Shown piece by piece: positions 9,678 through 40,376 of a stretch of DNA of 64,000 nt (positions are counted from its first letter, which is position 1; the number at the start of each line of letters is the position of its first letter). Source of the DNA: Intoshia linei (taxonomy: Eukaryota > Animalia > Orthonectida); NCBI GenBank assembly GCA_001642005.1, contig LWCA01000042.1, positions 1 to 64,000 on the forward strand, in the 5' to 3' direction. The notes below the pieces were generated by a model. It made no database searches and had not been told where the DNA came from. It saw only the letters and a program-made list of their open reading frames with translations. Position numbers and translations under genes: made by a program.

Positions 9678-12600
9678 CCTGGTAGAGTAAACGTAGATTT
9701 ATCGTATGGTACATGATTTGAAAGTAATTGATTAATGTTTTGTGAATATTTTTCTTTGTTTTCAACAATTTCCTGTGCTAAAAGATGATATTCATTTTGT
9801 GAATTATCTTGTAATTTATTTTCTGAATCTGATGCGTAGAAATTACTAATATCGTTTTTTATTTTTTTATTTATACCGTTACTCATATCTTCATCTTGTC
9901 CTCGGTAATTTTCATGAAAATCTTTTTCAAATTGATCATTTATTTTAATTTTTGAATTAATGTTGGTGTCCGAATCCAAAACTAATTTAAAAGATTTATC
10001 TATGACTGACTTGGAATTCATCGTTTCGTCATTACTAGCAATGTCATTTTGATAGTCTTGATAAACACTGCTCTCTGTCAATTCATGAGAGTGAATTCTA
10101 TTTATATCTTTATCAGTATATTCAATATTGGATGCATTTTCAAAATCACTTTTTTTTGAATTTGTCCAAGAGTTATTATTGCTACTTACGATGTAACTTG
10201 CATTTCCTTTGTGTATTGTATAACTACAATTTGAACCATTTTCGTCTTGTCTGTTTACCCAGTCATAATGACTTTCATCAGTTTCCCAATTTATACTTGC
10301 GGGGACTATTTCTTGTGTATTCTCGTAAGGTTCTATAATGTAACTTGCATTACTTTTTTCTTCGCTAGATGTAATTGTATAACTTTTATCATCTCTAGGT
10401 ATTTTTTCTGTTTTATAAAAAAATGTTTTCTTTGAATTATTTTCACAAGCTAAACTGTAGTCTTCGTCTTCCGAATTAGGCATACCTATTTTTGAAATTA
10501 AATATATTAATTTTGTGGAATGGGTTTGTAATAGTGTTCATTTTAATGATTGAAAGATTTACACCTTGAAAAATTATTCAATTAACAGTACACTTGTGTA
10601 TATAAAAAAAATTTTTTACCTCACTTTAAAAATGCTAGAGTAGGTGGATCACTTTTTCCCAGATCCCTTGGGCGCACTTGGAACTAATTAAAAAAAGATA
10701 TGCATACAAAGCAAATAATATATATTAAGCATTTTAAATAAGTTACATATCTATTAAAATACTTTACTAGTGTATAAAATTTTGCAAATCTAAGATAAAA
10801 ATTTGTTATTTCGATACAAACTTAAAAAAATTTGATGGAACAGATCGTAACTGAAGTGGTTTACAGCTCGTTATCAATTTTGATTTGGAATATATTAAAT
10901 TTGATAGGCCCCATTAGTGCGCCCGCCGCAGAGATTGAGAAATATTAAGGTAAGGGAACACTTGCGAAATTTGAATATTTCTAAAACCAAAGTTAGATTT
11001 TCAACGTTAACTTATTTTTTAAGTATAATAAAAATGTGCCCTCGGCAGAGCTAGGTTCTGTTTGTACGTAGTACATAACAGTCCACCTAGTTATTGTATA
11101 TTTCTTGTGAAACACAAATTGTTACAATATTAAAAAATTTAAATTATCATGTAAATTTAAATTAAATTTGAAAATCGATGGAACTTTAAAGTTTAATTTA
11201 AAAACTTTTTAAATCAAGTTTATTAACAAGTTTAATTTATTTTAAATTTTAAACTTGTTTCTCTATATTAATCAAAATCATATGAATTTTACTGTAATGT
11301 ACGATTTAGGTGTATTATTTATAAAACATTTTTATAGATTAACTTAAGATTGATTAACGGGTTAGCCCAGTTGTTCCCAAAGTTTTTCCACCATGGATCA
11401 CTTGTCACACAATAATTTCCTTAATCCTGAACACGTCATTAATTTAATATTTATATTTTATTACATAAATATTCACAATGTATATATTCCTCCTTAAATC
11501 ACAAATTTTACATTACTTTTGACATGGTAGCTTCAATAGCGTAATTAAAAAATTATTAATTCAAACATACTTATGGCGATCTATTAGTCCCGAACCTATT
11601 GTATTCGAGATCCTTCTATTGAGGGATCTCGACGAAATTTTTTTTAAATGGTGTCTTTAATTTGTTAAATTGAGCATTAAAAAAATTCTTGAATATCAAC
11701 CAATTTGTGTGATAAATTTAAAATCTCAACTCAAGATTATAAATTTCATAGATATTAGGATGGTTATATGCATTTAAACATTTATATATGACTGCATATA
11801 TAGTCATTACCAGTTTACACACTTTTGCGTATCTCAAAGCCTTATAAATTATGTATATTTTTAAAAAATCCAAATTTTTCGCCAGGTATACAGGTCGATA
11901 ACTAATGGGTTAAGTTGATATTTGATATAAACGTACCTCGTTTGCTATCACGGTATTTTTTACTACTATTACTTATGACAAATGATGTTTTTTCAGTTTC
12001 TGACTGTAAATCAGATTTAATCGACTTGTAATTCTTTTCATGATTGTATGATGTATCTAAAATATAGTACTAAGTATATTACTGTATTAGTATAGTTGAC
12101 CACAAATTGTTTGAATTTAAATATAATTTTCATTTTTGATGAATATTGAATTTTCCCCTTTCCATTCACACTTATTATAATAATAATAATTATTCGCGTA
12201 TGGATGTGAAAATAATGTAATTTATATACAGTCTAATATCATATCATATGAAGAGTTTCAAATCTGGAGGTTTATAACATTTTGGTGGCAATATAAATTG
12301 AAATAATTTATATTTTTTACGGGGAATGCGTAGATTTCTGGATTACTTTTTTGTCTATATCAAGTTTATATTGTTAACTGGAACAAGCTGCGCCAGAATA
12401 ATCTTTTTTTTAAATTCTAGAATTCAATATTTCAAATTTCTTGTTTTATTATTAATAAAATAGATACCAATAAAAAAATGCATTCCAAAGTGTTTTTTCA
12501 CAGTGAAGGTATCACTCTGTCAGATTGAAATTTTTTATGTGTGTTAACTGGATATCACTGTATCAGTTGTATTTTTTTTAAATTTTAGGACTAATCATTA

Positions 12601-15090
12601 AAAAAAAAGTAATATGGGGTTTTGATAGTGAAAATTATCTTTTGTGAGGTTGCCATTTATGATAATGCTTATGATTTTAAAAAATATCCAGAATTTATGT
12701 TTTATAAAATTATAGGACATTTTTCATTTTTAAAATAAAGAGTAATTTGAGTCTTGATTTAGATCATGAAGGTATGCGTTTCTTATGCTCAGATTTAAGA
12801 AAATGTTAATAATTTTAAAACGCGTCTTTTTAAATTTAAAATCGCAGAATTTATGATTTTTTTAATTTTAAATTGTATTTATCTTTAAAAAAAATGGCAA
12901 ATTAGGTTTTTGACCATGAATGTCTCAATTTCGAAGAATAAAACATAAATATAAACATCATTCGCAAAAAACTGTATTCGAAATTGGGTTTTTATAAATT
13001 TTACAATAGTTAATTTTTCAAATAATAAGTAACAGACAGACACACATTCAATCCTAACTTATATAATATGCTACGCGATTTTTGTTTGTGTGTGTGTGTC
13101 TGTGTGTCCAGCTTTAGTTAAATAACTACCCGTCTTAGAATTTTATAAAGTCCACATTTCAATTACAGTTTTTTCCGGCGGTGTTCGCAAAATAAATTTC
13201 AACCTCCCAAACTCAGATCTTACGGGTCAAAAATTCCAATTATCCCTTTTTTTGAAAATTAAACGTTTTGGAGAATTTAAAAAAATTATATCTTCAGGGC
13301 CAAAACCACAAATTCCCTTCCTTTTTTTTTGGAAAACAGCCCTAGAATTTAAAAAAAATAACAGGTTGTACAGTTGTATCCTGTTAACACACACAGAAAA
13401 TTTCAATTTGAATAAGTGACGCCTTCACGGTCAAAAAAGCATTTTAGTATTCATATATTTTTTCTGGAAATAATATTCCTTCAAAAGATTGATAATAGTG
13501 AATAGTACAATTTTTAAGTTAAATTTTCAACGTGAATTTATATTTTTGGTAGAATAAAAATGTGACCTCAGCAGAGCTAGGTGCTGTTTGTAAGTAGTAT
13601 ATAACAGTCAACCTAGTCTTATATAAAACTTTATTCAACGCTTATTTTTTATTTACCCAGTTTAAGAACGAATTGAAAAAGTGGGATATAATATTTAACT
13701 GGCTGCGAACTCTGCATTTAAACGTACTAAACTATGTGTTCCTGTGAATAAATAAAAGTGTGAGTATTTACACTTATTTTCATCGCTATCAGAGTCCATA
13801 TGCTTAATATTGCTCACATCATCTAGAAGCGACTTTACTATATATAAATTTAATAGTGAAATAAAATAAAATATGCTTATTACTGTTTGATGATCTCTTA
13901 TTTGAAATGTTATTTGTATTTGAATTATTTGTCGTCAATTGGTTAATGTAATCGTCTAGTAATTTCTCTTTGTTTCCAGATTGATTTAATGGTTGTAAAT
14001 TACCTAATTAAACTTTTATGAATATAAATATATAGAATGATATTTCAATTTATGTCATAAAAATAGAACAACATTTAGGAAATCGATACAATAAACTCAT
14101 TAAATTACCTATAAACGTAAGACACCGTGATTTTGCCCTTGATTTATTGTCCCTTTTAGTGTGTCTCTTTTTTATACCTAAAACAAACGTTTATATCATA
14201 ATTGTCTGTCATTACTTTTGTTTGTGTTACCATTTCTTTCACGGTTTATATCTAAATTTCAAATTAATTAAGTTAAAAATTAATATTACTAAAAAATGAT
14301 TCAACTTCATCTTCTTCCCCTAAATTATTTTCATGTAATTTCAATTATAGATTATATACCAGATATTTTTTTGTAACTATACTTAGTTTTTCGCTGCCTT
14401 TTTGTTGCATATTGAGGCCTCATTTCCATATTGTTTTCTAATAACTGCATTGAATCATTTTTTGTTTTTATTGGAATCGGAACCTTTGAATATAAATGAT
14501 AAAGTATCATTGATAATATTTGAAATAATAAAAAATTAATTAAATTTCGTTACAAGTTATAACATTTCGACAATATTTTATCTACAATTGACTGTATAGA
14601 TTTTTTAGTTGGGTAATCCTATTTATCGCTGTAAATTAGATTTTGGAAGAATTAATTTTATTGACAGGGGGACCAAGGTATGAAAACATTTTAATATAAT
14701 TAATCAATTTGTATTATATGCTGTTTTGATGGTTACAGTGTGTCTATATCTTTAAATTTAAAAAAAATTCGAAAATTATGCAAATCCCAACATTGTCAAA
14801 CGAAAGACAACCCTATATGGAAATTAAAATATTCCTTCTTCAATGGGTATCATTATTCTTTTTAATAAAAAATTTATAAAGTACATTATGTAAAGTATAT
14901 TATAAATTTATTCTTTTAAATATTTATGATGTTATTGTATTTTAATTCATTATTTACAAAAAATGGAAAACAATAAATACGTTAAGATACCTGCCCTGGT
15001 GATGCAATGACTAATTTTGAACCAATTTTTTCTTTTAGTAAGTCGAAAGCACTTTTTTGAGTCATTGACTGATTTTATTTAATAAATTCA
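9678..15090 (-). CDS. Uncharacterised multi-exon low-complexity (Ser/Asn/Asp-rich) protein; may start further upstream (~18170) and may continue downstream
   Basis: Large exon 10485-9678 (AG|GTATGCCT...CCAG|GTAAAT) is phase-compatible with exon ~12056-11936 (DTSYNHEKNYKSIK...RDSKR); further small GT/AG-bounded open segments at 13700-15090. Confidence 0.55.
10940..11090 (+). mobile_element. 3' fragment of the Helitron-like family (terminal hairpin + CTAG|T)
   Basis: CTCGGCAGAGCTAGGTTCTGTTTGTACGTAGTACATAACAGTCCACCTAGT; same end as the 13052-13616 copy. Confidence 0.7.
12290..13050 (-). mobile_element. Non-autonomous Helitron-like element, minus-strand copy (second subfamily)
   Basis: Reverse complement of the family modules also seen at 16298-16775, 42380-43030 and 53085-53812; (GTCT/GT)n microsatellite at its 5' end. 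Confidence 0.7.
13052..13616 (+). mobile_element. Complete non-autonomous Helitron-like element (~565 bp)
   Basis: Starts TCCTAACTTATATAA, has a (GT/GTCT)n microsatellite, ends in hairpin + CTAG; flanked by A (13051) and T (13617) with no TSD. Confidence 0.82.
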
Positions 15091-16297
15091 AATTGATTTT
15101 ATTAGTACTGATGTTTATTATACTATTTATTAACAGTGTAAATAAATAAAACATAATGTTGAATATTGTGTATTACATGTAGATATTACATCCATATTCT
15201 TTTTTATTTAAATTATGAGTACATGGTCATTTGTTTCATTTACATTTTTTTTAATATTATTTCCTTCAAATAGAAATTGTATATGATGGATGATTAGCTG
15301 GCATTAAAACACATTATGATTAGCAAATTTAAATATCACATGCATAAGAAATTTTTAAATTAGCTGGTAACAACTGTACATTACTCCTATCTTAATTTAT
15401 GATTGATATTGATTATACCGCAAAAATCATTAATAGTTTCATTATATGTTTGTTTATATTTTCAAAAATTACGAAAATAGTGTCAGATATATCGATAATT
15501 ATAATTAGACTAATATGTCAATCCAATTACTTTTTTTAGAGATTATTTATATGGCTATACCATTATGCAATTAATTTGTAAATGAAATATAGATAATTTA
15601 ATTTATTAGATTTGATCAATGACCAATTATTTTTAATAATGAAAGCAGTCCATTTTTATTATCCATCAATTAATCAAAATTTTAATAAAAATTCCAACTT
15701 ATATAAACTCTTAGTTTGTCTCTGTGTCAATGTGTCATCGTTTATTTAAATGGCTAAGAGTCTTAGAATTTTAATAAACACAAATTCCAAGTCAGTTTTT
15801 TCTGGGGAAGAAGTAATATAAATTTCAACCTCCGAAACTTACATCATACCGGTCTAAAAATCAAATTATCCTTTTTTTTAAATTAATTTTAAAGTGTGAT
15901 TTTAAGGAAATTTTTTTGTACCATATTTTAAACATGGTTCCAGTATTACATTTTAAAATTTAAATAAAATCAAACGAGACCTAAAATTGCTTAAAATTTA
16001 CAACTGGTGAAAAGCAAATGTTTTTACATTAACATTTTAAAAAATTTGGTCTTATATTAATTAAAATGTAATTTAATGAAGGTTTTAAACATTCTATATG
16101 ATGTTTCTTAGTCGTTTATTTCTATAATTATAATTGTAGTTATATAAATTTATTCTTGGTTATTTTTTGTAATGAAAAGATAAACAAAACTCACACAAAT
16201 ACAATGTAATACGATTCAAAACCATTTAGAATCGCATCGGCATCAGAATCGTTGAAAATTTAAGAAATTTTGTGGCATCACTAATTTGATCATGTTA

Positions 16298-17540
16298 ATC
16301 CTTGACTTACATGTATATAAATATGAATGTCTGTGTGTATTTGTGTGTGTAACCATTTATTGAAAAAATAGACTGTCGCATGATTTAAAAAATCCGATTT
16401 TCTAATACCGTTTTATCTATTTTTCACTTTCAGAATTTGAGTCCTTCATGGTTAAAACCACAAATTACCCTTTGTTTTAAAAATAAAACATGTCCTAAAA
16501 TTTTTTTAAACATAAATTCTGGGATAGTTTTTAAAATCATAAACATTATCAAAAATAAAAACCCTTAAAAAAAATATATCTTCAGGGCCAAAACCCCGAA
16601 ATTACCATTTTTTTTTAAAATGAAAACAGCTCTAGAATTTAAACAAAATTACAGGTGGTACAGTTGTTATCTTTTAAAATACACAAACAAATTCAATCTG
16701 AATAAGTGACGCCTCCACGGTCAAAAAAGTACTTTAGTATTCATATATTTTTTTTCGAAATATTTTATTTATAAAATATATACAGTATAACCTCTGTTAT
16801 TCGCTCATTCCGTTATTTTTCCAAAATTTCTCATAAAAAATATCAAATTTTATATGTAATAAATTCAATTTTTTATTTTATAATCGTTTCATATAACTAA
16901 CTAATTAACAAGTAAATAATTATGTGATTAAATAACTAATCTAACCAATATAACCGACTTTGATAATCGACAACATCAATTAAAATTAATTTATTTACTT
17001 AATTTAAAAGAATGAAATACACTCGATTAACTAACGAAGAAAAATGCAGAATCATAAAATATTCACAAGAAAATATATTATGTTCCCATAATCAATTGTC
17101 ACGTATTTTCTCGACCATATTAAAAAAAATTATAAAAAAGAGATCAATAACTGATTATTTAAAAAGCAAGGTAGAAGTGTACATAGGATATCTGAAGGAA
17201 GTGGGGATTTAAAAAGAGATTATACATTAAAATATGATGATGTAGAACGCAAATTATTGATTTGGATTGAAAAATTAGAAATGAAAGAAATGATATTAAC
17301 TGATTTGATATTAGTGGAAAAGACGAAAATTTTGGTACAAGAAAATAACATAACAGACTTAAAATGTTCGCAAGGGTGGCTAGATAAGTTTAAGAGAAAA
17401 AACGCTTTAAACTTTAAATTATTTGAAATAATTAACCGTTCGAAAATTAAAAAAAAAAAAATTATTCTGATAGAGAGTATACCATTTAATATAAATACAA
17501 TATTTCAATCCCAGAAGTCTATGCATTCCCAGTGAAAAAC
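16298..17540 (+). mobile_element. Helitron-like copy interrupted by a truncated pogo/Tigger element
   Basis: Family modules at 16298-16775 resume at ~17430-17540 (ATTATTCTGATAGAG...CCCAGAAGTCTATGCATTCCCAGTGAAAA). Confidence 0.65.
16783..17430 (+). mobile_element. pogo/Tigger transposon 5' half (CENP-B-type HTH transposase pseudogene)
   Basis: TA|CAGTATAACCTC terminus; MKYTRLTNEEKCRII and LKCSQGWLDKFKRKN motifs; catalytic domain and second TIR absent. Confidence 0.8.
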
Positions 17541-18440: not shown

Positions 18441-21400
18441 ATGATGAAAAAGTCTAACATTATTATAAATTACACATTGGGTGCTGTTACTGATCCTGTA
18501 TTTCATACATTGTTTTTTTACATTTGATATTGTTTATAACAAATAATATTTTAATTTTAGAAGGATATGGATGTTCGTTTGAGCAGTTTTCAAAAAAAAA
18601 AAATGCATTCTCGCATTAGAACTTTGGAAGATGCGGAAAAGGATCTTAGAAACGACATTCAGAAATTGGAATTACGACAAACTTCTGATGAGTCAATTAT
18701 GTGCATTCTTAATCAATATTGGAATCGAGTTTGTTTTTGATTTTATTTATTTTATTGTGCTTTGTTTTATTTTTGATATTATATTTTTTAATTTTAATAT
18801 TTTATATAAATTTTTCATTTTTTATGTTTTAAAATTAAATTAAAATATTTTTTATTTAACTGGATATTTAAGGATATAATTATTTATTTATTACTATTAT
18901 CGAAATATACGAATGGTGTATTATATTTTATATTTGACGAGTTACGAGTGAGTCTGATGTAATCTTATTAGATTAACTATATCAGTAATTTAAAGGATTT
19001 ATTGGAATTTAGTGGGAGAAATATTTGTGATAAATATAAATATATCAGAAAAATTTTAATTGATGGAAGCGGTTTGCCGTAAGGCCTAGGTCAGCGGTTC
19101 CCAAACTTTTTTGTTGTGGACTACTTGGCATAATAATGAAAATGACATGGTCTAAAAATTGTTTAACTATAATTAATATGGTTATAATATAATTTTTTTA
19201 ATATTAAAATGTAATTAATATATTACAATTATTATTAGTTACTAATAATTAGTATGAGAATTTATGAGAAGTATGAATTTTTTCACATTTTTTTTGAATT
19301 ATTAACTTATACCTAGTAGTATAATCTGATAATGCACATCTAAGATCTTCCTCAACTTTCAATTTATTTCTGTTTTTGGTTTTTATGCTGCATAAAGCAG
19401 AAAATCCTATTTCACATAAGTATGTACTTGAAAAAGGGATTTAAACTTTTAAAGCAGCATCGTATAGTTTTGAATTTTTTCATGAAATTCAATTCCAGAA
19501 ATATTCAATTGGCTTCGATTTAAATATATCTTCATGATAACTGTTATTCTGTAATTCCAAAGGTTCTTGTAAATTTATATCAACTTCTTTTAAATTACAA
19601 ATAAAAGGGTTGCGACATACCTTCATTAACACATCAATGTCTTCAAATGGGAAATATTTAACAAATTCGGCATGTAATATATCCAAAGGATTAGTGATTT
19701 TATTTTTAACATCATTGAGAATACTGTTTCCATCAAGACAAGAATTCATATTAGGAAACATTATTGTTATGTTCACATTAATGCGATATTTATATAATCG
19801 CAATTTAGCCAAAAAATAATTGGTTAAATCTTTATGCTTCATAAGATTTGATTTTTTTCCTTGCATTTTTCGATTTAAACTATTACACATTTATAAAAGA
19901 TCAACTACATATCCTATATAAACATTGTCAGAATTAAACGTTGATGTTAATGAACTACCTTTTTTATCAAGAAATCCTTTAATTTCTTCTAAAAAAAACG
20001 AGTTCAAAAATTTCCAAGAATTTCATTATTAGAAAAATATCTACAATATGCTAACAATCATGAATTTGAAGAACCATCTTGTGTCTCATCTAATTGTGGA
20101 GAAAATTTTATAAAATTCAAATTAGATATTGTCTGATCATTAATATCATGAGAAATGTCACTAATTCTTCTTTTTACAGTATTATTTGATAATACAATTT
20201 TGTCAACTTTTTGAGCCGACGATTCTCCAAAAAGTATTTCCACAAATTTTTTAGTACATGGAAGAATCAAATTTTTGCCAATGGTATGTTTTTCTTTAGC
20301 TATCATGTATGATACGTTATAAGAAGCTTCGACATATTTTAAATCACTTTGAAAAAAATTAGTAGCAGTTGTTTTTAATCGTTTTTGATTTCTAACAAGG
20401 GCCTCAAAGTAGGAAGGTTCCATATTCATTAATTCAGGATGTATTTTAGTAAGGTGGTTTTGTAATTTTGATGGATTCATTAACGAATTTCTTAATTCTT
20501 TCAAACAAACCAAACATTTTGCAATCTCATATTTATTTAACGTTATATAAGTAAAACCAAATTTGATGTAGTCACAGTTGTATTTCCTCTTTAGGCTACT
20601 ATTTTTAGACATAATTAGTAATTGTTATCGGATAAATCAACAAACGTCGGCAAACAAATTCCGGAGACTCAAGTACCGCTTTAGTCAATACCATATATAA
20701 TATGTTAGCATGTTTGACAATACTCGACAACGTAGTCGGTGTACAATACTTGGTATTCATGGGTGATGATAGTCTCTTTAGGGTTGATGACGAATTCGTT
20801 TCTCAACATGGTGTACGTAAATAAGCGACGTATTATAACTTCTCTGCAAAATTCATTATCATTATTAATTTCTAATACAATTTTTTTCTGTAAATAAGCT
20901 AACCTATCAATCTCTTTACTACCTTGACTATTGTGCAATAATAATTTATTACATTGGTAGAACCTATATGTACCTATATATATCTAATACATCATTATTG
21001 ATGTAATTCAATTACTCAGGACTTTCTACTTTTTCCTTTTCATACATCATGTTTTTAACATATTTTTCCAAAAGTTTTTTTAAGTTTACATATTTTTCGT
21101 TTCCAAACAGACTATTTTTTTAAACCTTTTTAATTCTTCTTGAAAAGACAGTCCTGGAACCTCCAAGAAGGCTGTCTCATCAATTGATACTGTTAAATAG
21201 TAGTAGGCACTGCTCACACGTCCCTTTGAGTGAGGACATGTAAACAATGCGCTAATTAGATCGAACATCTTATCAAGCAACATTAATAATTTATTTGTTT
21301 AATTATTAAGATAATATGTTTCTTTTCCTATTTTAACACATGGAGGGTTCTACACTGAGTTTTTTAAGAGTATACGACATTCCGTCTAAATGTTTATGAA

Positions 21401-24400
21401 CAGTATTTGTTGATACATTTAATTTATCATCAAATTTGTGAACATCTCAAATGGATGAGGAATTGTAGATCCTATTACTGCTTTGCTCCACGACATGTGT
21501 CTTAGATCGTCACAATATGTTGCTGTGAATCTCCAACAATTCCTTCAGTTTGTATTACGACCAGCAGTCAGTCTGTTGCTAGATTCTTCAGAGTTAATGA
21601 TTTTTATATATACGTTTTTTGGAAATTTCCTAGAAAATATTAATTTGATTGTCTTAGAATTTTGGATTAATCCACATATAGTGTCTGAATATCCATACAG
21701 TTTGGATTGAAACAATTCTGATATGAATCTCGGGAAGAAAGGTGTCACATATGACAGGTATTGTACAAAGTTGCTTTGGTCTTTAAATGTAGGGTCCAAA
21801 CTTCCCTGAATTTCCTTGTTTTTTATCGAGGATCTTCTTGCTTCTATGCTTTTCCGAACTTAATCTTTTATAAGATTTAGAGTACTTGGAGCATTTATAA
21901 GATTAAGACCTGATGGATTGTTTATCAATTTTAACATATCGGAGAATCTATACGTCTTTATCCTACATGATCCGGCTGTCAGTGATAGTACCTTACAATA
22001 CTTGCATGTAGTATTTTCATATACAGACTTCCAAAAGAATACTTTCACAGACCGGGTCTGGAAATTGCGTAATTAAAAATCTGGTCAATGCTGCTCTCTC
22101 GGGCTTCCTATACCAGGGTCTAAGAACAAGAAAAAGTTAACTAGTGTAGATATTGTGCCTTGTATTACATCCATATAATTGCGTTTTAATGCTTGGGTAA
22201 ATGTCAGGAACTTGTATATGCTTCTATTACCGTACATTACGTATAGTATTATGCTTTTTAACATGTTCTCGCTGGTTTGACATATTGTTAAGCACGTTGT
22301 ACTAATCGTAGATATTATATTCGCAGCTGTCAAGACTTGATCATTCGGAGTGAGTCCAACTTTTCCAAATCTCGTAGGTTCTGTCCTTAGCATTAATTGT
22401 ATATATAATATTATTTTCTCATATACTAGCAAATTCGTCGATGAATATGTCTCGTCTGCTTTAATCGTCAACCCTAAATAGCTTGCCCATCTTTTAATTG
22501 CGTTAATAAGCGACTTGTATGTCTTGTATGACACATTTGTTTGTTTTATATCACCGTGCTTCTTGTTTCACCTATTAGATTTGGTGGTAAGTGATAAGTA
22601 GGACAGATCACTTGGTTATCACCTAGTGCTAAAACCTGCACTTTGACATTTCTAGTAGCACACTCCTTTTCTTTCATTAACAAGCTGACAATGCTCCATC
22701 CGTTTTGTTGTAAGCCTTTATTTCCACTTAACTGGCTGTTCCATGCCAATCTAAAAGGAATTCTCAAAGAATTCGTGAGTTCTTTTGACAACATTAGTAA
22801 ATCCGAATGATCTGTATTAGACTTTAAATATGATAGCTGTAGAATCGTACCTTTGATGATTGTTCCATTTTTCATAATCCAAATGGTATGCAAAAGTGAT
22901 TAAAATATTATTGGAGTTTCCATGTCCATGTCCATGTCCAGGTACACATTTTATTTTTTTGAATAATCGGTTAAGATTGTCAATGATCCGAATAGTGGTG
23001 CAATGAATAACCAAAATTTACTTTAATTCATTTATTTTTAAATGTGGTTATGGTTGATTTTTTCTATCTGTACAATTTTTGTCATTTGTCAAGAATTTAT
23101 GCAAAATTTTGATGAAAATTATCATAATTATATATGGAAAAATTTAAAATAATTTCATTATCAATGTGAAATGTAAAGTCAAATTAATTTAACAATTGAC
23201 TCCATTGAATTAGAAATTTGCATGAGATTTGAAAATAATTAAATTTTAAGGAGTAGGATTATGATCCAACATGAGATAACTATGTTGATAATATTAATCA
23301 AGTATATTTTAATCTTGCATTAATCTCAAGTTTTATTATAAATATATTTTGGACTTTTTTAACATTGATAGATTAATTTTAATTTTTTTTAATTATACAA
23401 GATAAAATTTTCTTTCATCTAAAAAATTGTATTGCTTTTTATTTAAACTAGTATTATTTATTTAGGTTTACACTGATTTGAACATATTTTTAAAACGCTT
23501 TATCAATAATGAAAATGAACTAATGGATTCTGATACATTCTTAAATCACAATTCAATATCAAACATTTCTGAAGAAGACATTAAAACCATTATGGAGAAT
23601 CGCTATCATAAAGTAAGTACCCTCCTAGACCAACTTACACCTCTATTGGTCAAAAACATGCTCAACAATTCCTTTAAGGGTATGTTCACTATTATTATTA
23701 TTTTAAAATCAATATTTTGTAGGTGATTCTTCTCTCAGTGATACAGACAAGGAAGAAAATGTTACATCATTTTACAACGATCAAAACCAAAATTTACAAA
23801 AGCTGAACAATGAACTACACCAATTGAATAGTCAACTAAGAATAGAAGTATATAATTGTTAAATTTTTATATATTTCATATTATAGAATTCACAATACAT
23901 TTTGGAGAAAAATAAAACGGATAATGAAATTGAGGGTTTAAAAAATAAAATGGAAAGCATGGAAGCAGATTTAGATAGATCCAACGAACTAATATCCAGA
24001 TTAGAATTTTCAGTTAGGCAGTTTTCAGAATCTAATAATTTAAATACTCAAACTACTAATTCAAACGAAAAAAATGTAAACTTGAAATCAAACTCCAAAG
24101 ATTCAGATTCCGCTGTAGGTGACGTACATCATGATTTGGAAGACTTGAAGGAATTGGCTGAATCTCGTCAAAATGACATACAAAATTATCAAAAGAAAAT
24201 CATCAATCTATTGAAAGAACGAGATGAAGCAAACAACAAAGTTTTTATGTATGAATCTCAAATTAGTAAAGATGAAAAATACCAACAATTGTGCCATTCA
24301 TATACTATTCTTCAAAAGGCTTTAATTAAAAAAAATGACGATTTTAATAATTATATGGTAGTAAGCAAAAGAAAACACGATAAAGTGACTAATGACATGT

Positions 24401-26399
24401 TGAACATGGAGAAGAGTCATTTATCATCAATTTTATCCATGTATCATCATTTTATAGAATACGAAGACAACAAAATAGACATGGAGGCTAAATGTAACGA
24501 ATTGACTCGTTTCCTGGAAGCATCGGTTACAAATGCTGCTAAAAATGACGAACTTTTTAAGGAATTGAATATTATACTTAAAGGAACGCGCACCATGATT
24601 AATGTTTACAGAATTGAAAATAAAAAACTTCGTGGTAGATTCTATAATATGAGAGAATTGTATAATAAACAAAATAAAACTATAGAAAAATTAAAATATG
24701 TGCAAATTCAAAATACCCAAAAACCTAATCATATTTCTCAAAACGTAAAACCCAACATTAAGCACATTGCTCAGCCTGTACCTCCAGTAGATGCCAGTAC
24801 TCTTAAAAATTTAGAAGCTGTTCAAAATCACATTTCCAATGATCACCCAGATATTGTAAAAACTGAACATGTAAACCAATCCTCAAACAAACATGCACAT
24901 AAATCTGAATTTACACCTTATATAACAAAAATTCAAAACTATGAACAGGAACTAAGAGAAATTAAGGGTAAATATCGAAAATGCATGGAAAACCTAAACG
25001 AACTAACCAGAGTCCTGAATGATTCAAAATCAACTATACCTGAAAAGGAATTGGCTATGCGGCTTGCTCACGAAGAATCACTCAAAAGAGAAATTGACTA
25101 TCAAAGAGTTGATTTTAAGCAAAAAAAGCGTAGCCTAGAAGAAGAATACCAGAAAAAATTAAAAAAAGAGCAAAATTCCTCCTTCATGAACAAAAATTCC
25201 CACCATCCATTGTACAATAATTTAAATGAAGAACTTATAGCAACATCCGAAGCTCTTGAATGTTTAGAAGTTCAAAATATAGAGTTTGTCAAAAAATTTC
25301 AAGTTGTCAATGAAATGTACACAAAATTAGAATCTGAACAATCCCGAGTCAATCAAAACGAAATTTTAACTCGAGTCGAGAAAGAAAATTCCAAATCAGC
25401 AATCGAAAAACTTCGAAATGAAATTGACAACCAAAATAATACAATTCACGCGTTTCGTACAAATGAAATTAAACTTAACGATAAAGTCAGTACCTATGAA
25501 AAAGTCATTATTGAAAAAAATGATTTAATCGACATGTACACTAGAAAACTTATTGAATATAACCAAGAAATTGAAAATTTAGGAAGGGTAAATCGATCTA
25601 TTTCAGCTGAATTGGCTATTTCACAACATTCTCTTACCTCTAAAACTATTATGCTAGAAAAGCAAATCTTTGAAAATGATAAATTGAGGGTATGTCTATT
25701 TAATATTCATAATTTGTTTTATTTTTTAGTTGACGGTTTAAATTGTAAGCGTGGCATTTTTTGTTTAATGTTATTTTGTTTTATTGCATTTTAAAATGTG
25801 TAAATAAAAAAATTAAGATCCCTGTTAATATTAAAAATAAAAAGTGTGCTAACGTTTACTATTGATTGATAATTGATACAAAATAGGGCATCTAAACATG
25901 AAATTAAGAGAGGTATTTATATTTATGAATACACCCACTGTATCTGAGATGACTGCTTGGTCACTCGAAAACTTTTGGTCAAAATTTTTGATTTGGTGTA
26001 ATTAACTTTTAAATTATGCCAACAATTAAACCCTTTACTTTGTATTGGTAAAAAACTATAATATCTAAATTTAATGAATTCAATTTTAGGAAGAATGTAA
26101 AATAATGAGAAGAAAATTGAGAAGATTCCTAAATGGTGGTATTAACGATAAACAACTGTTAGATGAAGAATTACGTGAATATAAGGTATTTTTAGTAGTG
26201 ATCAATTTAAAAAATAATTTAGGATATTTTAACATGCCCATCGTGCAAAGTTCGTAAAAAAAATTGCATTTTAACCAAATGTTTCCATGTATTTTGCTAC
26301 GAATGTATGAAAATGCGCTACGACTCCAGACAAAGAAAATGTCCGAAATGTAACGCGCCTTTTGGAGCGCATGACTATAATAGAATTTATTTAACTTAA
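18441..26399 (+). CDS. BRE1: E3 ubiquitin ligase BRE1 (RNF20/40); exons ~18441-18497, 18561-18728, 23466-23679, 23723-23847, 23887-25689, 26090-26185, 26223-26399
   Basis: N-terminal [11 protein letters not shown]...[25 protein letters not shown]|[12 protein letters not shown] parallels RNF20 ([36 protein letters not shown]); long coiled coil; C-terminal [50 protein letters not shown]. Start codon uncertain. Confidence 0.93.
19092..20630 (-). mobile_element. hAT Buster/Charlie-group transposon remnant (ZBED5/SCAND3/FAM200-like transposase pseudogene, internally deleted) with only one terminus
   Basis: Terminus CAGCGGTTCCCAAACT at 19092 preceded by GCCTAGGT (NNNTANNN Buster target); BED finger [36 protein letters not shown]; C-terminal [13 protein letters not shown]...[17 protein letters not shown]. 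Confidence 0.92.
20635..23010 (-). pseudogene. L: Endogenous viral element: rhabdovirus (Mononegavirales) L polymerase fragment, frameshifted and internally deleted
   Basis: Colinear L motifs: [10 protein letters not shown], motif [23 protein letters not shown], motif B ([15 protein letters not shown]), motif [12 protein letters not shown], motif [79 protein letters not shown]. Confidence 0.95.
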
Positions 26400-26763: not shown

Positions 26764-29700
26764 ATGGAAAATTTCAAAAAGATATCTCGGCATTTGGGAT
26801 TTTTAAAAAAAGATCAAGTACCAACTGAAACTAATTTAAATGTGAACGACGACAAAGATCCCAATCCTTCGCAGCTTAAAATGTTGGAAAATACTTGCTT
26901 GAATCCTGAACCAGTACACGAAACTGTAACTAGGGTCACGTGGAGCAAAAAAATTGACTTTTTGTTGTCTGTCATAGGATTTTCAGTGGACCTTGGAAAT
27001 ATTTGGAGATTTCCATACATTTGTTACAGAAATGGAGGAGGTAACATATTTTAACATTTCAATTTTAATTTAATGTATCTGCTTTTGATACTTTTATATT
27101 TAATTAATTTTTTAATTTCGACAGCTGGCATTCAAAGTTTTTTATTAAATTTATTCTTTTGTTTTTCTTTATTCAGTTTTTAGTTTAACTAAATTTATAA
27201 ACATTTGTTCATAGGGTAAGTTTAGAAAATACCATTCAATATACATTGCATTTGATATTTAAATCTTGTATTACATTTATTTACATTTTTTTTAAATTTT
27301 AGTCAATTTCTCATGAATCGTTTAAGATTAATGTTTATATGTCAATGTTAATGCTTATTTGATTTATAATTCATATTGGATAATGGATTTTTTAATATTT
27401 CGATGGATTTATTATTAAATCTATAATTATTATATAATTTTATCATAATTATCGTGATATAATCGGTTAACCTATAATATAAAATTACTCTGTATTAATT
27501 GTAGTTTTGTTTTACTATTTACATTCAAAATTTAATAATACAATAAGAGTTAAAAAATATATAATATACCTTGAGGTATTTTTATGTGTAACGTTTTTAG
27601 AGTTTTTAAAATTACTTTTTAAAATTTTTTTTACTTCTCCAGTAGGTATGGTAACTTTATATCCCATTCTTTTAACAATTTTAAACGTATTATTCAATCC
27701 TTTAAAAATCTCAAAAAAAAATTATCTGTTGAGATTATCCATTGAAAAATGGACACTGTCCATTCGACAGACCCAGTTTTTAGATATTATAATAATAGCA
27801 GTAGATAATGATTCATTATATATTTAATATGTAATGTATATATTATGCATCAAAAATGAATCAATTGTATAAACGTGCTAAATCAACATTTAGGAGCTTT
27901 TTTGGTGGCTTATGTAATAATGCTTATTTTTGGAGGACTGCCTCTATTTTATATGGAGCTTGCATTAGGACAAGTGCAACGTACCGGTTGTATATCTGTA
28001 TGGAAAAAAATTTGTCCCATGATGAAAGGTATTCAAATTAGTTTTAAAATTTAGAGATTTATCAATTTAAGAAAATAAAAGAATAGTGACAAATTCTGTA
28101 GGGATGTCTGACTTCATGAATTTTTTAAAAATGTATTATTATTCAAGTGTAGAGATTTAAGAGACAAAATTAAGTATAAAACTTTTCACAAAATTCTAAT
28201 TTTTATGTCAAGTTTATGCAGTTAAAATTTAGTTCCAATTATGTGCTCTGCATAATTATCATTTTGGGGTATATGATCTTTTAAATTGATTGTTTATAAA
28301 CTAATTATAATTATAAAATAATAATAAATAAAAGGTACTATTTTTTATTATGTTGTGCTTTGAAATATACTAATATTAAGTGTTACCATTATTAGGTATA
28401 TAAATATACATTTTATGAGATTTATATAAGTCAGGATTTCCATTTTTAATACAATTTATTAGTAACGAATTCTTTAAGTTTTTCAGATTTTTATATAAAT
28501 TTACTTTAACCACCATTTACCAAAATCGACAATTCAAAATTTTTGTTTAATAAAATTTTAATAATAATAGAATCTAGTTTCTAAGAAACTGCTAACCGAT
28601 TTAGTATATATCATAATATAGTATTATAATACATTTTACTATACAGTAGTTTAATGAAAATGCTGAAAACAAAATTTTGTTTAAATTTTTATCTAAAATT
28701 AGTTTTGTTGTTCGTGAATTCTCTATTTCGCCATATATTTACATGTTCTCTATATAAATGAATGAATTTCACCACATTGTTCGCAAATCTATTTTTTTTA
28801 TGAAAAATTTTACTTTATTAACCAAGGGGGGATCAAAGCATGATAACATTTTATGGATTTATTTTGCAAAATTGATGGCGAATAACTAAGATTTGTATAA
28901 AAATTATAAGAAATATATTTTTTGAGTGAATAACTTAATTGGTTAATTTTAAGGCTCATATATTGAAGATTGCAGCTAAATATTGTATATAATTATAATA
29001 TTATTTTATATATACACTCGTTGACCGTTATGTATTACATACAAACAGGACCTAGCTCTGCAGAGGGCACATTTTTATTATACCAAAAAAATAAATCATA
29101 TCACATTACTTTTTACTTTAAAGTGAATTATTCCATCTTAATTTTTTTTAACATTTGAGATTGAAAAATTGCGTATCCATAAAAAAAATTTCGAAGGAAT
29201 AAATTATATAGATTTTCACCCAAATTTCTTTATTGGAAATGTGTAGACGTTCAATGCACATCTTTTTTGAAATTGTAGGATCAATATTTACCTTTTCAAT
29301 TTTTATTTTAATCAAAATATTTGAAAAATATTGGTTGATAATATGTTAAAAATTATTTTTCACCGAGAATGCGTAGATTTCAGGGATTGAAATTTTGTAT
29401 GTATATCAACTGGAATAAGCTCTATCAGAATTTTTTTTTTTTTTAATTTTCGGACCTTTAATTATTTCATATTTTTTGTTTTAATAAAACATTTCGAATA
29501 AAAAATTATCAATACTAAAATCCTTTTTTGACCGTGAAGTCATCACTTATTCGGATTGAAATTTTTTGTGTGTATTAACAGGATACAACTGTATCACCTG
29601 TAATTTTTTTGAAATTTTAGGGCTGTTACATAAAAAAAAGGTAATTCGTGATTTTGGCTTTGAAGATATATTTTTTTTAAATTTAAATTTATGATAATGT

Positions 29701-32700
29701 CTATGATTTTAAAATCCGTATCAGCGTATATATTTTTTAAATTCTCCAACTCGTTTGATTTTGAAAAAAAAGGACAATTGGGGTTTTTTACCCGTAAGAT
29801 GTGAGTTTGGGAGGTTGGAATTTATCTTATTATATTTCACGGAAAAAACTGTAATTGAAATGTGGACTTTATAAAATTAACCTTATTAAAGTTATCTCTA
29901 TTAATTATTGACCGATAAAATATGCATATTTAATAGGAATCGGGTTTGGAATATGCTTGATAGCTAGTTATGTAGCCATATATTACAACACAATATTAGC
30001 TTGGTCCATTTATTACTTTATCAATTCATTTCAAAAAATAATACCTTGGAGTAATTGTGATAACGATTGGAATACAGAAAATTGCGTCATTGTTAAAAAT
30101 GCCGACAATATGCAGTCAAATCGAACACTGAACAGTGCAGCCAAGGAATATTATTTGTAAGTTTAATAATTAAATTTTGTGATGAATTATTTTGCAATTA
30201 CGTAATTAATAATTAGCATAATATGTTAATTAAATGAAAGGTTTCCGTATCTGGGAATTAGAAATCTTTTTCATCGATGTAACATTATTATCAAAAAATT
30301 AGTACATCTTGTAAATCTTGCTATATTAAGAAATTTTAGGGGTCCATACAGTGGCAAATCTAAGATTTTCAGCCAGGGGAGCAAAATAAATACTACGGGA
30401 GCCAAACGCGTATAATTTATTTAAATTGGAATTTTTATATTGTTTTTTACAAATTGTAAATATTCCTATCTATAATAATAATTTATATATTTTTTTGTAC
30501 TACATTCATAGTTTTTGTATTCATTCTAGTAAATTTTTCAATATTGAACTGTTGAGTTGCATCAACTGCAGCTGAACTGCATCAAAATCGACATTTTCAG
30601 CAAGTTCTCTTTAAATTATGAACAACGTTAAATCATAAAAATTTAAGTTAAAACGTAAACGATAGGGCGTATAAAAATTTTTTAATTTTTCACATGTTAA
30701 TGATGTTAATACACAAATTAAAATATCTTAGGGCACATTTTTCACGTCATGGAGGCGGCCGAAATTAAGGAATAATACATGTCTAATTGTGGCGCAAATA
30801 TTAATGATAATAATTTTATTCATTTGACTAATAATCATGGTACAGTGCAGAATATTACCTATCTTATTTTGGCACAAATATTAATGATAATAATTTTATT
30901 CATTTGACTAATAATTATGGTACACTGAAGAATATTAGCTGTCTTATTTTGGCGCAAATATAAATGATTATAATTTTATTTATTTGGCTAATAATTAATG
31001 ATAAATTAAAGGATATTACTTGCAACTAATTCCATTATCTACATCTAAAAACAATTTGAGACATTCTTTTCTTTATAGTTTCATGATGTGAAACACCCTA
31101 GTAAGCTTATTACATTTGACGTGGATAGACGGGTAGCGAAATTTTAAAAAAGTAAAAATTAATTTTTATTTTTTAGTTACAAAGTATTAGAAATTCAAAA
31201 ATCGGATGGTTTAAGTAATATTGGTACTATAAAATTATCTTTGGCATTGTGCCTTCTTTTTTGCTTTTCCAGTGTTTATTTTGCACTATGGAAAGGAGTC
31301 AAATCTTCTGGAAAGGTAGATTATATAAATATACAAATTAATGTACGTTACTAAATATATTAATACTAGCTTGACTGTTTTGTACTTGGTAAAAACAGCA
31401 CCTAGCTTTGCCGAGGGTGGAATGTTATAATTTTACCAAAAAAATATATTCTTAAATAAAATTAACACTAGACACTATCACCAATCTTTTAAAGGAATGG
31501 TTGCCAAACGTTTGATTTTTTATTTATATATTCTAGGACGATTAATTATATCAAATTTTTTGTTTTAATGAAATAATTTCCCCAAAATCAAGGTAAACAG
31601 TAAATTCTTTTGTTAAATGAATGTTTAAGTTAACATTGAAAATTTTCATATATTGTAACTGGAAAAAGCTGTAAATTTCTAAGACATTTTTAGTTATTGA
31701 AATAAACGACAACACAAAGAGTTTTAGGAAATCATAATTTAGGATAATTTCCAATATTATATGTATTACAATTTTAGCGTCGCGAAAAACACGTTATAAA
31801 ATGTAAATTTTCCTGGATCACAAAATTTTTGCGTGGTCCCATAGGGCCCACATATTCCACGCTAAGAATGGTTGATTGATGGTTTGATGGATTGATTTTT
31901 TTAAACATCAATTAATATATTATTTAGGCAGTATGGATAACGGCAACATTACCTTATTTTATTCTTATAATATTACTAATACGTGGAGTAACATTACCTG
32001 GTGCTTCAGCTGGAATTCTTTATTATTTAATTCCGCAATGGGAAAAATTACTAGAAACTAAAGTATTTTATACATATGTTTATTTATATATAATTGCGGA
32101 AACTACTAACGGCTTTTCGCGGTAGGACCCCAGGACGGCACGTGTTCTCCATAAATTATGTATGAATTTAAATAATTTAGAATCAGTACCCGCGCAACTT
32201 CTAATATATTACGTTTTTTTACAAAACAATACATTCATTATAACAACTACAAAAAAAATTGATTCCACGACATACTTTACTTTATTTTTACTTAAATCTA
32301 ACCATTTTTACTAAAAATCCACTTTTACCAACCTTTAATGGAAAAATTCGGTTTTATTATCATTATTATTATCGGAAAAAATATTATAGATAAATAAAGT
32401 AAAGTAAATATAAAGTTTTTCACATGTTGCGTACGTTTAAGTAACATTTAAGTGATTTTTTCAATTGTATTTTTTATTTTAAAAATGAATAAGTTAAAAT
32501 TGAAACCACCATCCTTATAGTGCAGGGGTCACCAACTTTTGCATCCCATGAATCGTGGGTCATTTTTTTTATACCAAAAAATTATACGTCCCCGTTTTTA
32601 AATATTTACACCTGATACATTTCAATTTTAACTAAATTGAAACCATTCATACTCAACAAAATAAAATCCAGGGCGATCTGAAAATTTATAAAATGTTAAA

Positions 32701-36349: not shown

Positions 36350-39280
36350 ATTTTGCAATATTTACCTGAATAATACACATCGATTCAAATTTTTTTACCA
36401 TTGTTCATTTTGTTCAACTGAAAAATACATTAACAATTAATCCAGTTTAATATGGTATTATTATCTTTTACATCATCGGGATCATTGGTATACCTATTAA
36501 AAATTGATAAATTATTAATGAAAATACTACATGTGCAAATTTATATTCTGTTATTCTATACTTTATTTGATGTCTTGTTATTCTGCTCACAATATAAAAA
36601 ACATAGTATTACAACATACATTAGTAGTATAAGAAAAATACATTTTTTCTATTATCAGTATTTTTAGTAAATTCCTAAAGTGCTGATTCCGTTAATTATT
36701 GATACACAATTGATAATTTTTACTCATCTAAATAAGATACTAAATACGTATCACCACATTTAAAAGGACAAAATTTGTATTTACAATTTTATTTTTTCTA
36801 AAATTTAAGCTATTTATGACAATTTTTAGGATTGTACTGTTTTTACTTTATTTTTAAGATTATACTCACATTCTGTCTAATCTGAAAAAGTTAATTAAGA
36901 ATGTTAGAATATCGAACTATATGTATAAACAGTGTTTATTATTATTTAAATTTATTAAACACATTTTGATAAAATTCAAAAAAAATATTAAACACAAAAA
37001 AAAAAAAGAAAAAAAAGATGTTTTTCTAAGGAATAAAGCTCGATGCGCAAAGTCGTTTCTGCCAAGTTAAATAAGAATATTATTATTAAAAAAAGTAAGT
37101 GTCAACCTAAACAAGCAAAAATTTTGTGAAATAGAACCTTTAATATGTCATAAATTTTGATAATGCCCAAAATTAGATTAAAAATATTTTGATTAATTTT
37201 AGTTATCATTAATAGAGACCTTAATAAATGTTTAGGAGATGGAGATAATCTTTCAAAAATTAAATTTTTATATACTGGGTTGATGGTTAAAAATCCCTGA
37301 TTTATATGATTAAAATTAAAATAGTCAAACTAGTATTTTATATTATGAAAAAAAAGAAATTTCGATTACAAATAAAAGAAATAATTTTTAAATAACTATT
37401 ATTGAACTGACTCGCCGCAAGATTTTTTCTCTTCAAAAAGTGGTCCAAATGACCTAAAAGCTTTACCGGTTGCAAGTACAGATAGTGTCCGTCAAATAAT
37501 TTTATACAAAGCAAAGGGAATATAAATCCATTTTGAAAATGAATGAGAGCCTCTTAAGGCACTTCGTGGATCTAGGCTAAGCAAAGCGTCGGAGGCCCTT
37601 TAAAGTTTTGAGCGAAGCGATAAAAAAAATTAGGTTCCCTTTTTAGAAGATAGGTCATACTGTTGGTTGGAGACTTAGAGTCTTATTTCATTGAGTATTA
37701 ATAAAATCATTAAAAGATATGTAGGTTTATAGTAACTTTTATTACTACTTTACAAGCTATCTATTTTCTTTTTTGAATATTTACTTTATAGAAAGGTTTT
37801 AATGTTTAATATTACCATTTGAAACAGTTTTTATGTCAATATTATATGATGAACATTGTAGAATATATTTTAAATTGAATATTTACCAGAACTTTGATTC
37901 TTTAAACTATTTTCTTTCTAGCTATTTGAATTCCCCACACTTCAAAACTTATAAACTGTTTCTTAAGATATAAATGTAAAGTATATTTTAATAATTGGGG
38001 TCTCTTTTTAAGATATAAATGTAAAATACTTTTATTAATTTGGGGGCATTTTTTAATGAGTAGCCCTGGGCTACAGCCCATATTGCCCATGCCTTAAAAC
38101 GTCTCTAAATAAATGTAATGATAATAAACACTGTAGTGTAAACATAAATTGTATGCAAAATATGTTAATGTCAACTTTGGATGTCTGTTTGTTTAGTAAT
38201 GAATATTTCGTATCTTTTTGTTTAATTTCTTATTTTTATCAGGTTTTATTTTATTTTGAAATTGATAATTTAGTTGTTAATAATAGTATTTCTTTTAATC
38301 ACATAGAAATGAAACTTTGAACATTTTAGACATACGTGCAGTATAAGGTAAATTTAAACTATCAATTCATTATTTTAAAGGTTAAAGGTGTATTCAATTC
38401 ACTTGGTTCCATCATTGACAAAGGCGTATATGGGGATAGGTCTATATGAAGATTCTATCATCACAGCCTGTCATTATAGATTAATAAGTGATGTTGGAAT
38501 ATGATGTTGGAAAAATTTTTCATATGGCGGAGAAAAAATTTAAAAAACGGATGGAAAAACAATATTTTTTCTGCGCCATATCTACACGTACATGTACATA
38601 TAAATGAATAAAATCTTCACCTAACCTGGTTCTACTGTTGCCTCTCTACGATCTAGACCATAGTACAATGTATCAGTATAGTACAGTATTAAATATCAAT
38701 ATATCACCAAGTAAAAGAGTGAATATAGTATATCGATTAATATGTGAAATTGGAATATGAAGGAAATTTTCGTTACGAATGTGTTCAAAGTTCTAAAAAA
38801 ACTTTTAACCATAACTATAAGAATATAAATAAGAAAAATTTGCATCTACAATTTGAATTTCAATAATTTATTCAAATACTTCCCAAACTTGTTTCGGATA
38901 GAACCGTTTATTTACATTACTTTTTACTTTAAAGTCAATTATTCCATCTTAATTTTTTGTTTGTTAACATTTGCGTAAAGAATTTTAAAAAATTTTTTAT
39001 CCCATTTTTTTAATTTATTTTAATTTAATTTATTAGACAGAATGTGTGTATAATATTAAAAATAAAGTAAAAACAGTCCAATCCTAAAAATTGTCATAAA
39101 TAGCATAAATTCCAGCAAAATAAAATTATAAAAACCTATTTTGTCATTTTCAATGTGATGATATATATTCAGACCAATTTAATACTTAATACTTAAAAAT
39201 ACCAATTATTTATCTATAATTAACGGAATCAGCACTTTATAAACATATTTCAGGTGAATTTTCCAATATTGCAAAGCATT
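36350..39280. repeat. Long inverted-repeat pair (36677-36880 vs 39030-39240, extended by 36351-36372 vs 39248-39275); possible long-TIR element
   Basis: AAAGTGCTGATTCCGTTAATTA...CACATTCTGTCTAAT is reverse-complemented as ATTAGACAGAATGTG...TAATTAACGGAATCAGCACTTT. Confidence 0.75.
37545..38106 (-). mobile_element. hAT MITE, copy of 60958-61406 in the opposite orientation
   Basis: Decayed CAGAGCCGTCTTAAGGC-type TIRs; TSD AAATGAAT/AAATAAAT; internal sequence is the reverse complement of 60958-61406. Confidence 0.8.
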
Positions 39281-40376
39281 GTAATAAATATAAAAATGAT
39301 AATAACAAAGTTGTATTACTTTTAATAATTTGTTATTGTAGTTTTAATTTAAATTTTAAACAAAATGATTTGAAAATGAGAATTTAAGAATTAAAAATTG
39401 CGTAGCAATGAAAAAAGTTCATATTGTAAAAATTTGAAAAACGTTGATTGAAACAGTATAGCATCGTTTCTTGCCAAGCACACTGTGGGTGATTTACCTA
39501 ATACACTATGTTTTAATTATAATAATAAGATAAAATAACATAAAAATTTACTATTTATTATTTATTTATATTTAAAACCTGTAATATACAAATACAATAA
39601 AAGCACATAAAAATAAAACTAGTAACGATAAATTATCGATTAACCTTCTAATAACCTTAAAACGGATTTAAATCTACACTAATTATAGGCAATTATTAAT
39701 ATTTTGTAAGTTACATGACAAATATATATATAATTATATATCTAAATATTTATAGAATCTAGTAATTCCTAACGTGGGCGGTAGCGCCCACTTTAGGCAC
39801 TATAGCTATTTGGGACGATAGAAAAAATTTTAATTTTGTAAATGTTAATAAAAAATGTTTCAATAAATAAAACCATAATCAATAACAAATTATACAATTA
39901 AGTGAAAAAATGTAATTATCATAATACATAAATAAATGTATCATTAATACCCTTCAAAATTTTTTTAAATTATCCATAAATAATAATTTATAGCATTAAA
40001 AACTATACATCGTATTTATAAGACGAGGGGCATTATTTTGGTAATGTATAATGCTAAAAGCAATACATGTGACATGTTCCATATTTATAATTTTATATTT
40101 TTTAAGTCTACAATAAATAATATCCAATTGTCATATAACCAACTCGATAAAATAAATGTTATCATTTATTAAAATATTTTGTCCTAGATATAATGGACAA
40201 TTCATGGTTGAGAGATTAATTTAAATAATTGTCCATAATTCAAATCTCTCAACCTTACAATATATTAATATTATATAATAAATTAATTTTATTTTAAATT
40301 GCCATGCAATTAAAAGTTTCATATAAAATTAATAAAATATATTGTAAATTTAGAATATTAATTTTATAAAATAAAA

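Follow-up and report, generated by a model that had tools for sequence, protein, structure and literature searches.

A broken rhabdovirus L gene piece beside a second RNA-virus relic in a BRE1 intron of the orthonectid Intoshia linei

The first 64,000 nucleotides of contig LWCA01000042.1 of Intoshia linei (GenBank assembly GCA_001642005.1; this whole stretch is hereafter called the window) carry part of the host gene BRE1, and one intron of this gene holds a broken piece of a rhabdovirus large polymerase (L) gene, the element studied here. An earlier note, made from the letters alone, had described an endogenous rhabdovirus L element at 20635-23010 between host exons and had surmised that the host might be an orthonectid; I. 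linei is indeed an orthonectid, and BRE1 exons lie on both sides. The exon upstream of the large intron is located on the plus strand at 18561-18728 and matches positions 46-99 of human BRE1B (E 2.2e-6), the downstream exon was delimited by spliced contigs at 23466-23678 (plus strand), and the RING exon is found further on at 26223-26399 (plus strand, matching BRE1A/B with E 4e-27). The GT..AG intron in between (18729-23465, plus strand) measures 4,737 bp, against 63, 43 and 39 bases in the three neighbouring introns seen. The stretch was present in six sequencing runs (X1 to X6) of two studies, from 2016 and 2024, and five of these runs were taken as RNA on the ground of spliced contigs only. 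A single contig of X3 joins 18561-18728 directly to 23466-23678, and in X2, X5 and X6 the end of the upstream exon appears as a loose end at 23466, confirming that the position is truly intronic. From left to right, the intron contains a hAT transposon remnant, a second viral relic, a spacer and the L piece; what had been taken for a locus of one virus is thus composed of two unrelated viruses and a DNA transposon.

The element at 21431-22993 on the minus strand is a piece of about 1.56 kb from the middle part of a rhabdovirus L gene, and extends from motifs A-D of the RNA-dependent RNA polymerase (RdRp) into the capping domain as far as its first motif. A six-frame reading of 20400-23200 recovered on the minus strand, in the correct order, all the motifs that the earlier note had named, ending in ...GSTIPHP, with GDNQ intact and motif B present but worn. 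Mononeg_RNA_pol (PF00946) of Pfam was above its cut-off in four of the five open reading frames (ORFs) tested in the L frames (E 7e-7 to 3e-17), and the last piece matches positions 3-32 of 241 of Mononeg_mRNAcap, which is the start of the capping domain. With a profile built from 80 natural L proteins, eight of 161 stop-to-stop pieces gave a match (independent E-values 2.5e-5 to 4e-30), and these eight are collinear, covering profile positions 574-1115 of 2114 from 22993 down to 21431; all 80 proteins match this interval and no other place in the window. Among solved structures (PDB), a 160-residue piece matched only the L proteins of rabies virus (E 4e-17, the best match) and vesicular stomatitis virus (VSV). 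In the named search, 7 of 37 candidates came back, with sphaeridiorhabdovirus 2, psilorhabdovirus 2 and frog lyssa-like virus 1 at the top. Pfam, the L profile, the PDB and the named search all agree on a rhabdovirus L, as had been proposed, with mononegaviral L proteins as best matches. The extent proposed earlier was too large, since L is confined to 21431-22993, and the first 800 bases of the former interval lie outside it, with a plus-strand RdRp of positive-strand type at their left end that had gone unnoticed. A minus-strand ORF at 20705-20983 was likewise rejected as L, scoring 3.3 bits against the L profile, and is the reverse strand of this second relic.

The element is disrupted by four frame changes (near 22760, 22550, 22100 and 22037, minus strand) and three in-frame stops (about 22817-22819, 21860-21862 and 21545-21547, minus strand), and roughly 17-20 residues are missing behind RTHEFFE. 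Frameshifted minus-strand fragments in the right order had been reported before, and this part stands, with the number of pieces corrected from six to eight. About a quarter of L is retained: the profile match stops at 1115 of 2114, complete capping, connector, methyltransferase and C-terminal domains were not found, and with some 570 residues lacking before it and 1000 after it, the element is unable to make a polymerase. No pieces resembling N, P, M or G were found in the window, where 1 of 319 other ORFs from the same virus genomes gave a match, itself a partial L. Protein searches, limited to at most 2000 residues so that full-length L was outside their range, returned the locus's own gene model or nothing, and a metagenome scan returned three loci, one L-like contig (L081) and two chance matches on the GH repeat described below.

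The remaining L sequence shows considerable decay, as judged from its 4 frame changes and 3 stops, from its invariant columns (53 of the 66 covered were retained, whereas each of 34 natural proteins, left out in turn, kept at least 0.915) and from its flat GC content over the codon positions (0.33/0.36/0.33, compared to 0.41/0.23/0.26 in the BRE1 exon). The locus already figures in NCBI and UniRef as an automatic gene model of 395 residues labelled RdRp (P0001).

The second viral relic, at 20636-20857 on the plus strand, contains RdRp motifs B-C-D of positive-strand type (SGD..T...NT, GDD) and one in-frame stop. Read across this stop it scored above the cut-off for Pfam RdRP_2 (E 2.2e-8, 33.9 bits, cut-off 27), and both the motif B signature SG..T...NT and the GDD of motif C are present. 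Its Atlas features correspond to a Kitrinoviricota RdRp (0.94), and its Atlas neighbours are Kitrinoviricota RdRp fragments. An exhaustive comparison with 1.84 billion representative proteins yielded one match, 57% identical over 46 residues, to I. linei gene model A3Q56_06446 on another contig (contig 11,959), here called P0002; no PDB match and no viral contig was found, and all six pattern matches were due to chance. This match indicates that one and the same virus group left at least two relics in the I. linei genome. The ten nearest predicted structures of P0002 residues 1-66 are all Gag or long terminal repeat (LTR) retrotransposon proteins (TM 0.78-0.88, each under the naming bar), and according to these models the P0002 relic is apparently fused to a retrotransposon piece. 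The second relic and the L element derive from two unrelated RNA viruses. They are separated by a spacer (20858-21430) that gave no Pfam match in six frames, read with X at stops. Two sites in or at the edge of this spacer, 20946-20967 and 21419-21436, show short collinear matches to one 5,169-base X2 contig with a depth of 159, the second of them touching the end of the L piece; these matches may mean that an expressed mobile element has a decayed relative here, or may be fortuitous.

The left part of the intron is occupied by a decayed hAT-type DNA transposon (19092-20612, minus strand) with one terminal repeat at 19092, a broken transposase and a BED/Spin-doc-like finger, for which Pfam zf-C2H2_12 and zf-BED gave weak matches below the cut-off. 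Its end looks Buster-like. Diverged extra copies of the family occur in run X1, and another copy, seen in X1 and X2, has 27 letters in place of 19452-19720. The second relic starts about 25 bases from the transposase start codon. A site resembling the terminal repeat at 21436 was rejected as chance (4 mismatches in 13).

Membership of the Rhabdoviridae follows from position within the family in an L-protein phylogeny (ICTV profile, PMC13249128), and a phylogeny, which the earlier note had put forward as a check, was run. The 99 natural cores were reduced to 59 at 78% identity, two lyssavirus rows and seven named proteins were added and 24 rows were removed for speed, giving 45 rows with the element; the mixture-model tree and the approximately unbiased (AU) tests were based on 23 and 18 of these. 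L017 is the rabies-like and L047 the VSV-like row, the platrhaviruses are represented by two rows only (2 of 12 Betaplatrhavirus species), and none of the tree rows was identified as Alpha- or Gammaplatrhavirus. The element fell inside the DYEKWN group, which contains the rabies, VSV-like and Betaplatrhavirus rows, at 100/100 (IQ-TREE), and thus within the Rhabdoviridae. It grouped with the two trematode viruses at 92/59 (LG+G4) and 86/77 (mixture model), and with a Shimodaira-Hasegawa-like likelihood ratio (SH-aLRT) value of 77 in a third IQ-TREE run, and in all trees it stood outside the lyssaviruses plus crown, and hence perhaps outside the subfamily Alpharhabdovirinae, this node having only 89/79 and 84/75. 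The AU tests, for which the groups were picked after viewing a first tree, rejected the element with lyssaviruses (p 0.027), with the arthropod/vertebrate crown (p 0.014), with the inner crown (p 5e-6) and with the plant/insect outgroup (p 5e-5), so that nesting within the lyssaviruses or the crown was rejected. On these trees we would place the element at the base of the alpharhabdovirus/Betaplatrhavirus group.

Over about 460 columns, the element is 42.3% and 41.6% identical to sphaeridiorhabdovirus 2 and psilorhabdovirus 2 and 42.2% to frog lyssa-like virus 1, followed by the lyssaviruses (38.5-39.4%), other DYEKWN-type rows (31.6-38.1%) and the outgroups (20.6-24.8%). The first two are Betaplatrhavirus members from trematodes, a genus without an assigned subfamily in the available text of PMC12451637. 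Betaplatrhavirus provides the best named matches of the element, comes likewise from hosts that are parasitic worms and was its weak sister in the three IQ-TREE runs, but its two viruses are 76.8% alike, compared to about 42% for the element, which is moreover a disrupted quarter of L integrated into the DNA of another phylum. Frog lyssa-like virus 1 (Amplylivirus) and Lyssavirus share their motif A with the element, whereas a clade of these with the element was rejected as given above. A threshold of around 50% L identity within a genus is quoted in the accessible part of PMC9241645, and the 42% over the conserved core lies below it, although this comparison is not strict because decay after insertion lowers identity. 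We infer from the sequence that the source virus probably belonged to a new lineage of genus level, at the base of the group with Betaplatrhavirus, lyssaviruses and other DYEKWN-type rhabdoviruses. Flatworm rhabdoviruses are described as basal to lyssaviruses in the same excerpted source (PMC9241645).

The integration is supported by genomic contigs. One DNA contig of 2,987 nt covers 20151-23133, comprising part of the transposon, both viral relics and the right flank, and differs from the window by 11 letters and two small indels; its variant letters recur in the runs of the second study wherever those cover. The element, which may be inherited through the germline, fixed or segregating, was found in runs of both studies (2016 and 2024). 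Viral homology lies in host DNA, with host sequence on both sides and with inactivating mutations, traits that belong to a non-retroviral endogenous viral element (EVE). Misassembly is unlikely, because the element is present in runs of two studies and because in one run its antisense strand is spliced to the next BRE1 exon. On the right side, the pieces between 23133 and 23466 share an overlap of 17 bases or are separated by a gap where a repeat is skipped, a point taken up below. X5 and X6, which do not cover the element, and X4, which lacks cover at 22948-23455, were not used as evidence, and a joint in X3 at 22175-22394 (side 24, depth 4) was not trusted. At 23092-23220, loose ends and a diverged second version were seen in X1 and X5, which suggests a short repeat to the right of the L piece.

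Near its right end, the element contains a six-base repeat followed by a cryptic splice donor (22919-22943, plus strand; CAG/GT with the GT at 22942). The repeat is variable in length, being one unit shorter in X1 and X3, and reads GHGHGHG in the L frame. A 1,975-base contig of X2 covers 20991-22933 and joins cleanly to 23464. Allowing for the repeat unit that this allele lacks, the joint is a GT..AG splice that connects the virus-internal donor (GT 22942) with the regular acceptor at 23464-23465, and the RNA from the element is therefore plus-strand, antisense to L. This splice was seen in one of the five spliced runs, and in X3 a contig crosses the cryptic donor unspliced to 22995. Parts of the element are covered in the RNA-like runs X2, X3 and X4, with a contig depth, a poor measure, of 10.7 for the element RNA versus 1373 for the BRE1 exon. 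A protein from the spliced RNA is unlikely, since the ATG codons immediately upstream of the donor do not share the BRE1 reading frame. The repeat could also serve an acceptor because it is pyrimidine-rich, and the cryptic splice restores a CAG directly in front of the exon; this splice might therefore be the first step of a two-step removal of the BRE1 intron, which is a guess.

A DNA copy of an RNA virus requires a host reverse transcriptase. This applies to rhabdoviruses, whose replication proceeds through RNA and generally takes place in the cytoplasm (PMC13249128). We consider it very probable that the locus is an EVE, a broken L piece beside a second RNA-virus relic in a BRE1 intron, likely copied into germline DNA by a retrotransposon reverse transcriptase, and likely a dead fossil that persists because it is spliced out. 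Viral RNA in the cytoplasm would have been reverse-transcribed by a host retrotransposon enzyme, template switches would have joined the unrelated viral RNAs, and the product would have been inserted next to or into a hAT copy, the far end of which was then presumably lost, with neutral decay since. The insert could be tolerated because the whole intron is spliced out of the BRE1 mRNA.

Other origins were weighed against this one. An artefact, either a chimeric assembly or contaminating sequence from a live virus or from the worm's host animal, is conceivable for a parasite isolated from another animal, the more so as the right-exon DNA bridge is not one contig and depth is higher over the element, but the seven breaks are not expected of a live virus, the element and its allele letters are shared between the runs of two studies, and a second-study RNA contig splices it to the BRE1 exon, which makes this very improbable. 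The hAT transposon might instead have captured the viral pieces and brought them into the intron as cargo, considering the short distance between its transposase and the second relic and the other copies of its family. However, no second terminal repeat was found in the window within 3 mismatches, its 8-base flank has no partner (and hence no target duplication) between 18700 and 26000, and a DNA transposon is itself unable to copy RNA into DNA, leaving little chance for this route. Orthonectids live inside the tissue of their hosts, and the integration could also be real while the usual host of the virus was the parasitised animal, the worm being infected by spill-over. Passage of flatworm rhabdoviruses between parasite and host has been reported (in the available text of PMC9241645), yet germline integration requires viral RNA in the worm's own germ cells, and some of the nearest named relatives infect other parasitic worms, so that we find spill-over rather unlikely.

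What the element does at present leaves room for further alternatives. A domesticated protein-coding gene, as depicted by the NCBI model P0001, would agree with the existence of this model and with the GDNQ that it retains. However, P0001 bypasses the breaks by means of predicted introns through which the 1,975-nt X2 contig runs unspliced, lacks an in-frame motif A, opens in a frame without homology and finishes on the reverse strand of the second relic. The model is most plausibly an annotation artefact, and domestication is extremely improbable. The intron might also function as an antiviral archive in which the BRE1 promoter reads L in antisense, with the RNA feeding piRNA-like small RNAs against related rhabdoviruses. 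The plus-strand RNA, its partial coverage in three RNA-like runs and the two adjacent viruses in one intron would fit, and the dog whelk provides a precedent, a probable rhabdovirus EVE that yields negative-sense 5'U small RNAs (PMC6085071, available text). We regard such an archive as improbable, as any insert in an intron is read through on one strand or the other, contig depth over the element is low compared to the exon, the second relic is read in sense, and heavy decay would harm pairing with a virus. Equally small is the chance we give to the broadest version, a compound virus archive that would combine a rhabdovirus sister to the alpharhabdoviruses plus Betaplatrhavirus, in a second phylum of parasitic worms, with a new positive-strand family, and in which the BRE1 promoter and the viral donor would give an RNA kept as antisense, either as a source of small RNAs or for removing the intron in two steps.

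Several observations weigh against the reading as a dead, retrotransposon-copied EVE from a basal rhabdovirus lineage. The grouping with Betaplatrhavirus is weakly supported, a position of the element as sister to the whole DYEKWN group was not rejected (AU test, p 0.21), and the branch of the element is long, partly through decay. On the right side, no single DNA contig runs from 23133 to the exon at 23466. DNA depth reached 23.2 in the element, compared to 14.6 in the exon and 5.6 in the AT-rich flank, with GC contents of 0.33, 0.30 and 0.19, respectively; the higher depth over the element fits GC bias, and also a second copy. Neither a retrotransposon nor a poly(A) or target duplication was recognized at the locus, and we infer the retrotransposon mechanism from another locus (P0002) and from established EVE biology; the Gag-like stretch of P0002 was not recognized by Pfam. 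Finally, the element is represented by RNA, which makes 'dead' less certain where a role as RNA is concerned.

In arthropods, non-retroviral EVEs lie beside LTR retrotransposons, with fragments of several RNA viruses clustered, frameshifted and transcribed. The I. linei element differs in that it is situated in an intron of a conserved housekeeping gene, has a cryptic donor spliced to an exon, and has no LTR element identified at its locus. A probable rhabdovirus EVE of the dog whelk (PMC6085071, in the part available) is similarly a marine-spiralian relic between lyssaviruses and other rhabdoviruses with negative-sense expression, but it is a nucleoprotein with small-RNA evidence, whereas the I. 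linei element is an L in a known intron. The earlier note had suggested that the virus-host association may be undescribed. In the literature searched, which did not bring up the I. linei genome papers among its results, nothing on rhabdoviruses or named EVEs of orthonectids came up, and neither did a family, locus or virus link. What does exist is the automatic gene model and one sentence crediting I. linei with RdRP genes of viral families, probably transferred from viruses (PMC6396948, 2019), so the association is not entirely new to the record. This sentence concerns the same species and draws the same inference of transfer, but the accessible text gives no locus, accession or virus family. 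Because the filter described there required near-complete RdRp domains, these genes may be another locus; P0001 and P0002 seem short of a near-complete domain, and I. linei may thus carry a longer viral polymerase elsewhere. Another study sampled Orthonectida and, in its main text as available, names no virus for it, and its supplements may bear on the point (PMC11097642); a retrotransposon screen included Orthonectida genomes with nothing specific in the excerpted text (PMC13524379).

As a kind, a decayed EVE is ordinary; the value of this one lies in the host, the basal position, the second virus without relatives outside I. linei, and the antisense splice. The locus provides two virus records at once for the Orthonectida, a phylum to which, beyond the single sentence cited above, no virus or virus family is tied in the literature found. 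Viruses of parasitic flatworms have been proposed as the source of lyssaviruses and other vertebrate rhabdoviruses (PMC9241645), and a basal lineage in an unrelated marine parasite suggests that basal rhabdovirus diversity is wider among spiralian invertebrates.

Elsewhere in the window, a decayed pogo/Tigger-like transposase remnant was found at 17003-17535 on the plus strand (HTH_Tnp_Tc5, E 3.9e-9), and a second one, judged by eye, lies at 43170-43921 on the minus strand. A family of dispersed repeats, built on an internal unit of about 133 bases, occurs in both orientations, with copies that are 60-91% alike at 12466-13617, 15707-16782, 29294-29896, 42461-44619, 48284-49778, 53158-53765 and 60295-60613. 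A younger repeat is formed by the inverted pair 37795-38123 and 60942-61255, which are up to 95% alike over 125 bases. Further host genes, all recognized by eye, are RFC3-like (2442-3083, minus strand), SLC6 transporter-like (26764-27054, plus strand) and amino-acid transporter-like (40370-46925, plus strand).

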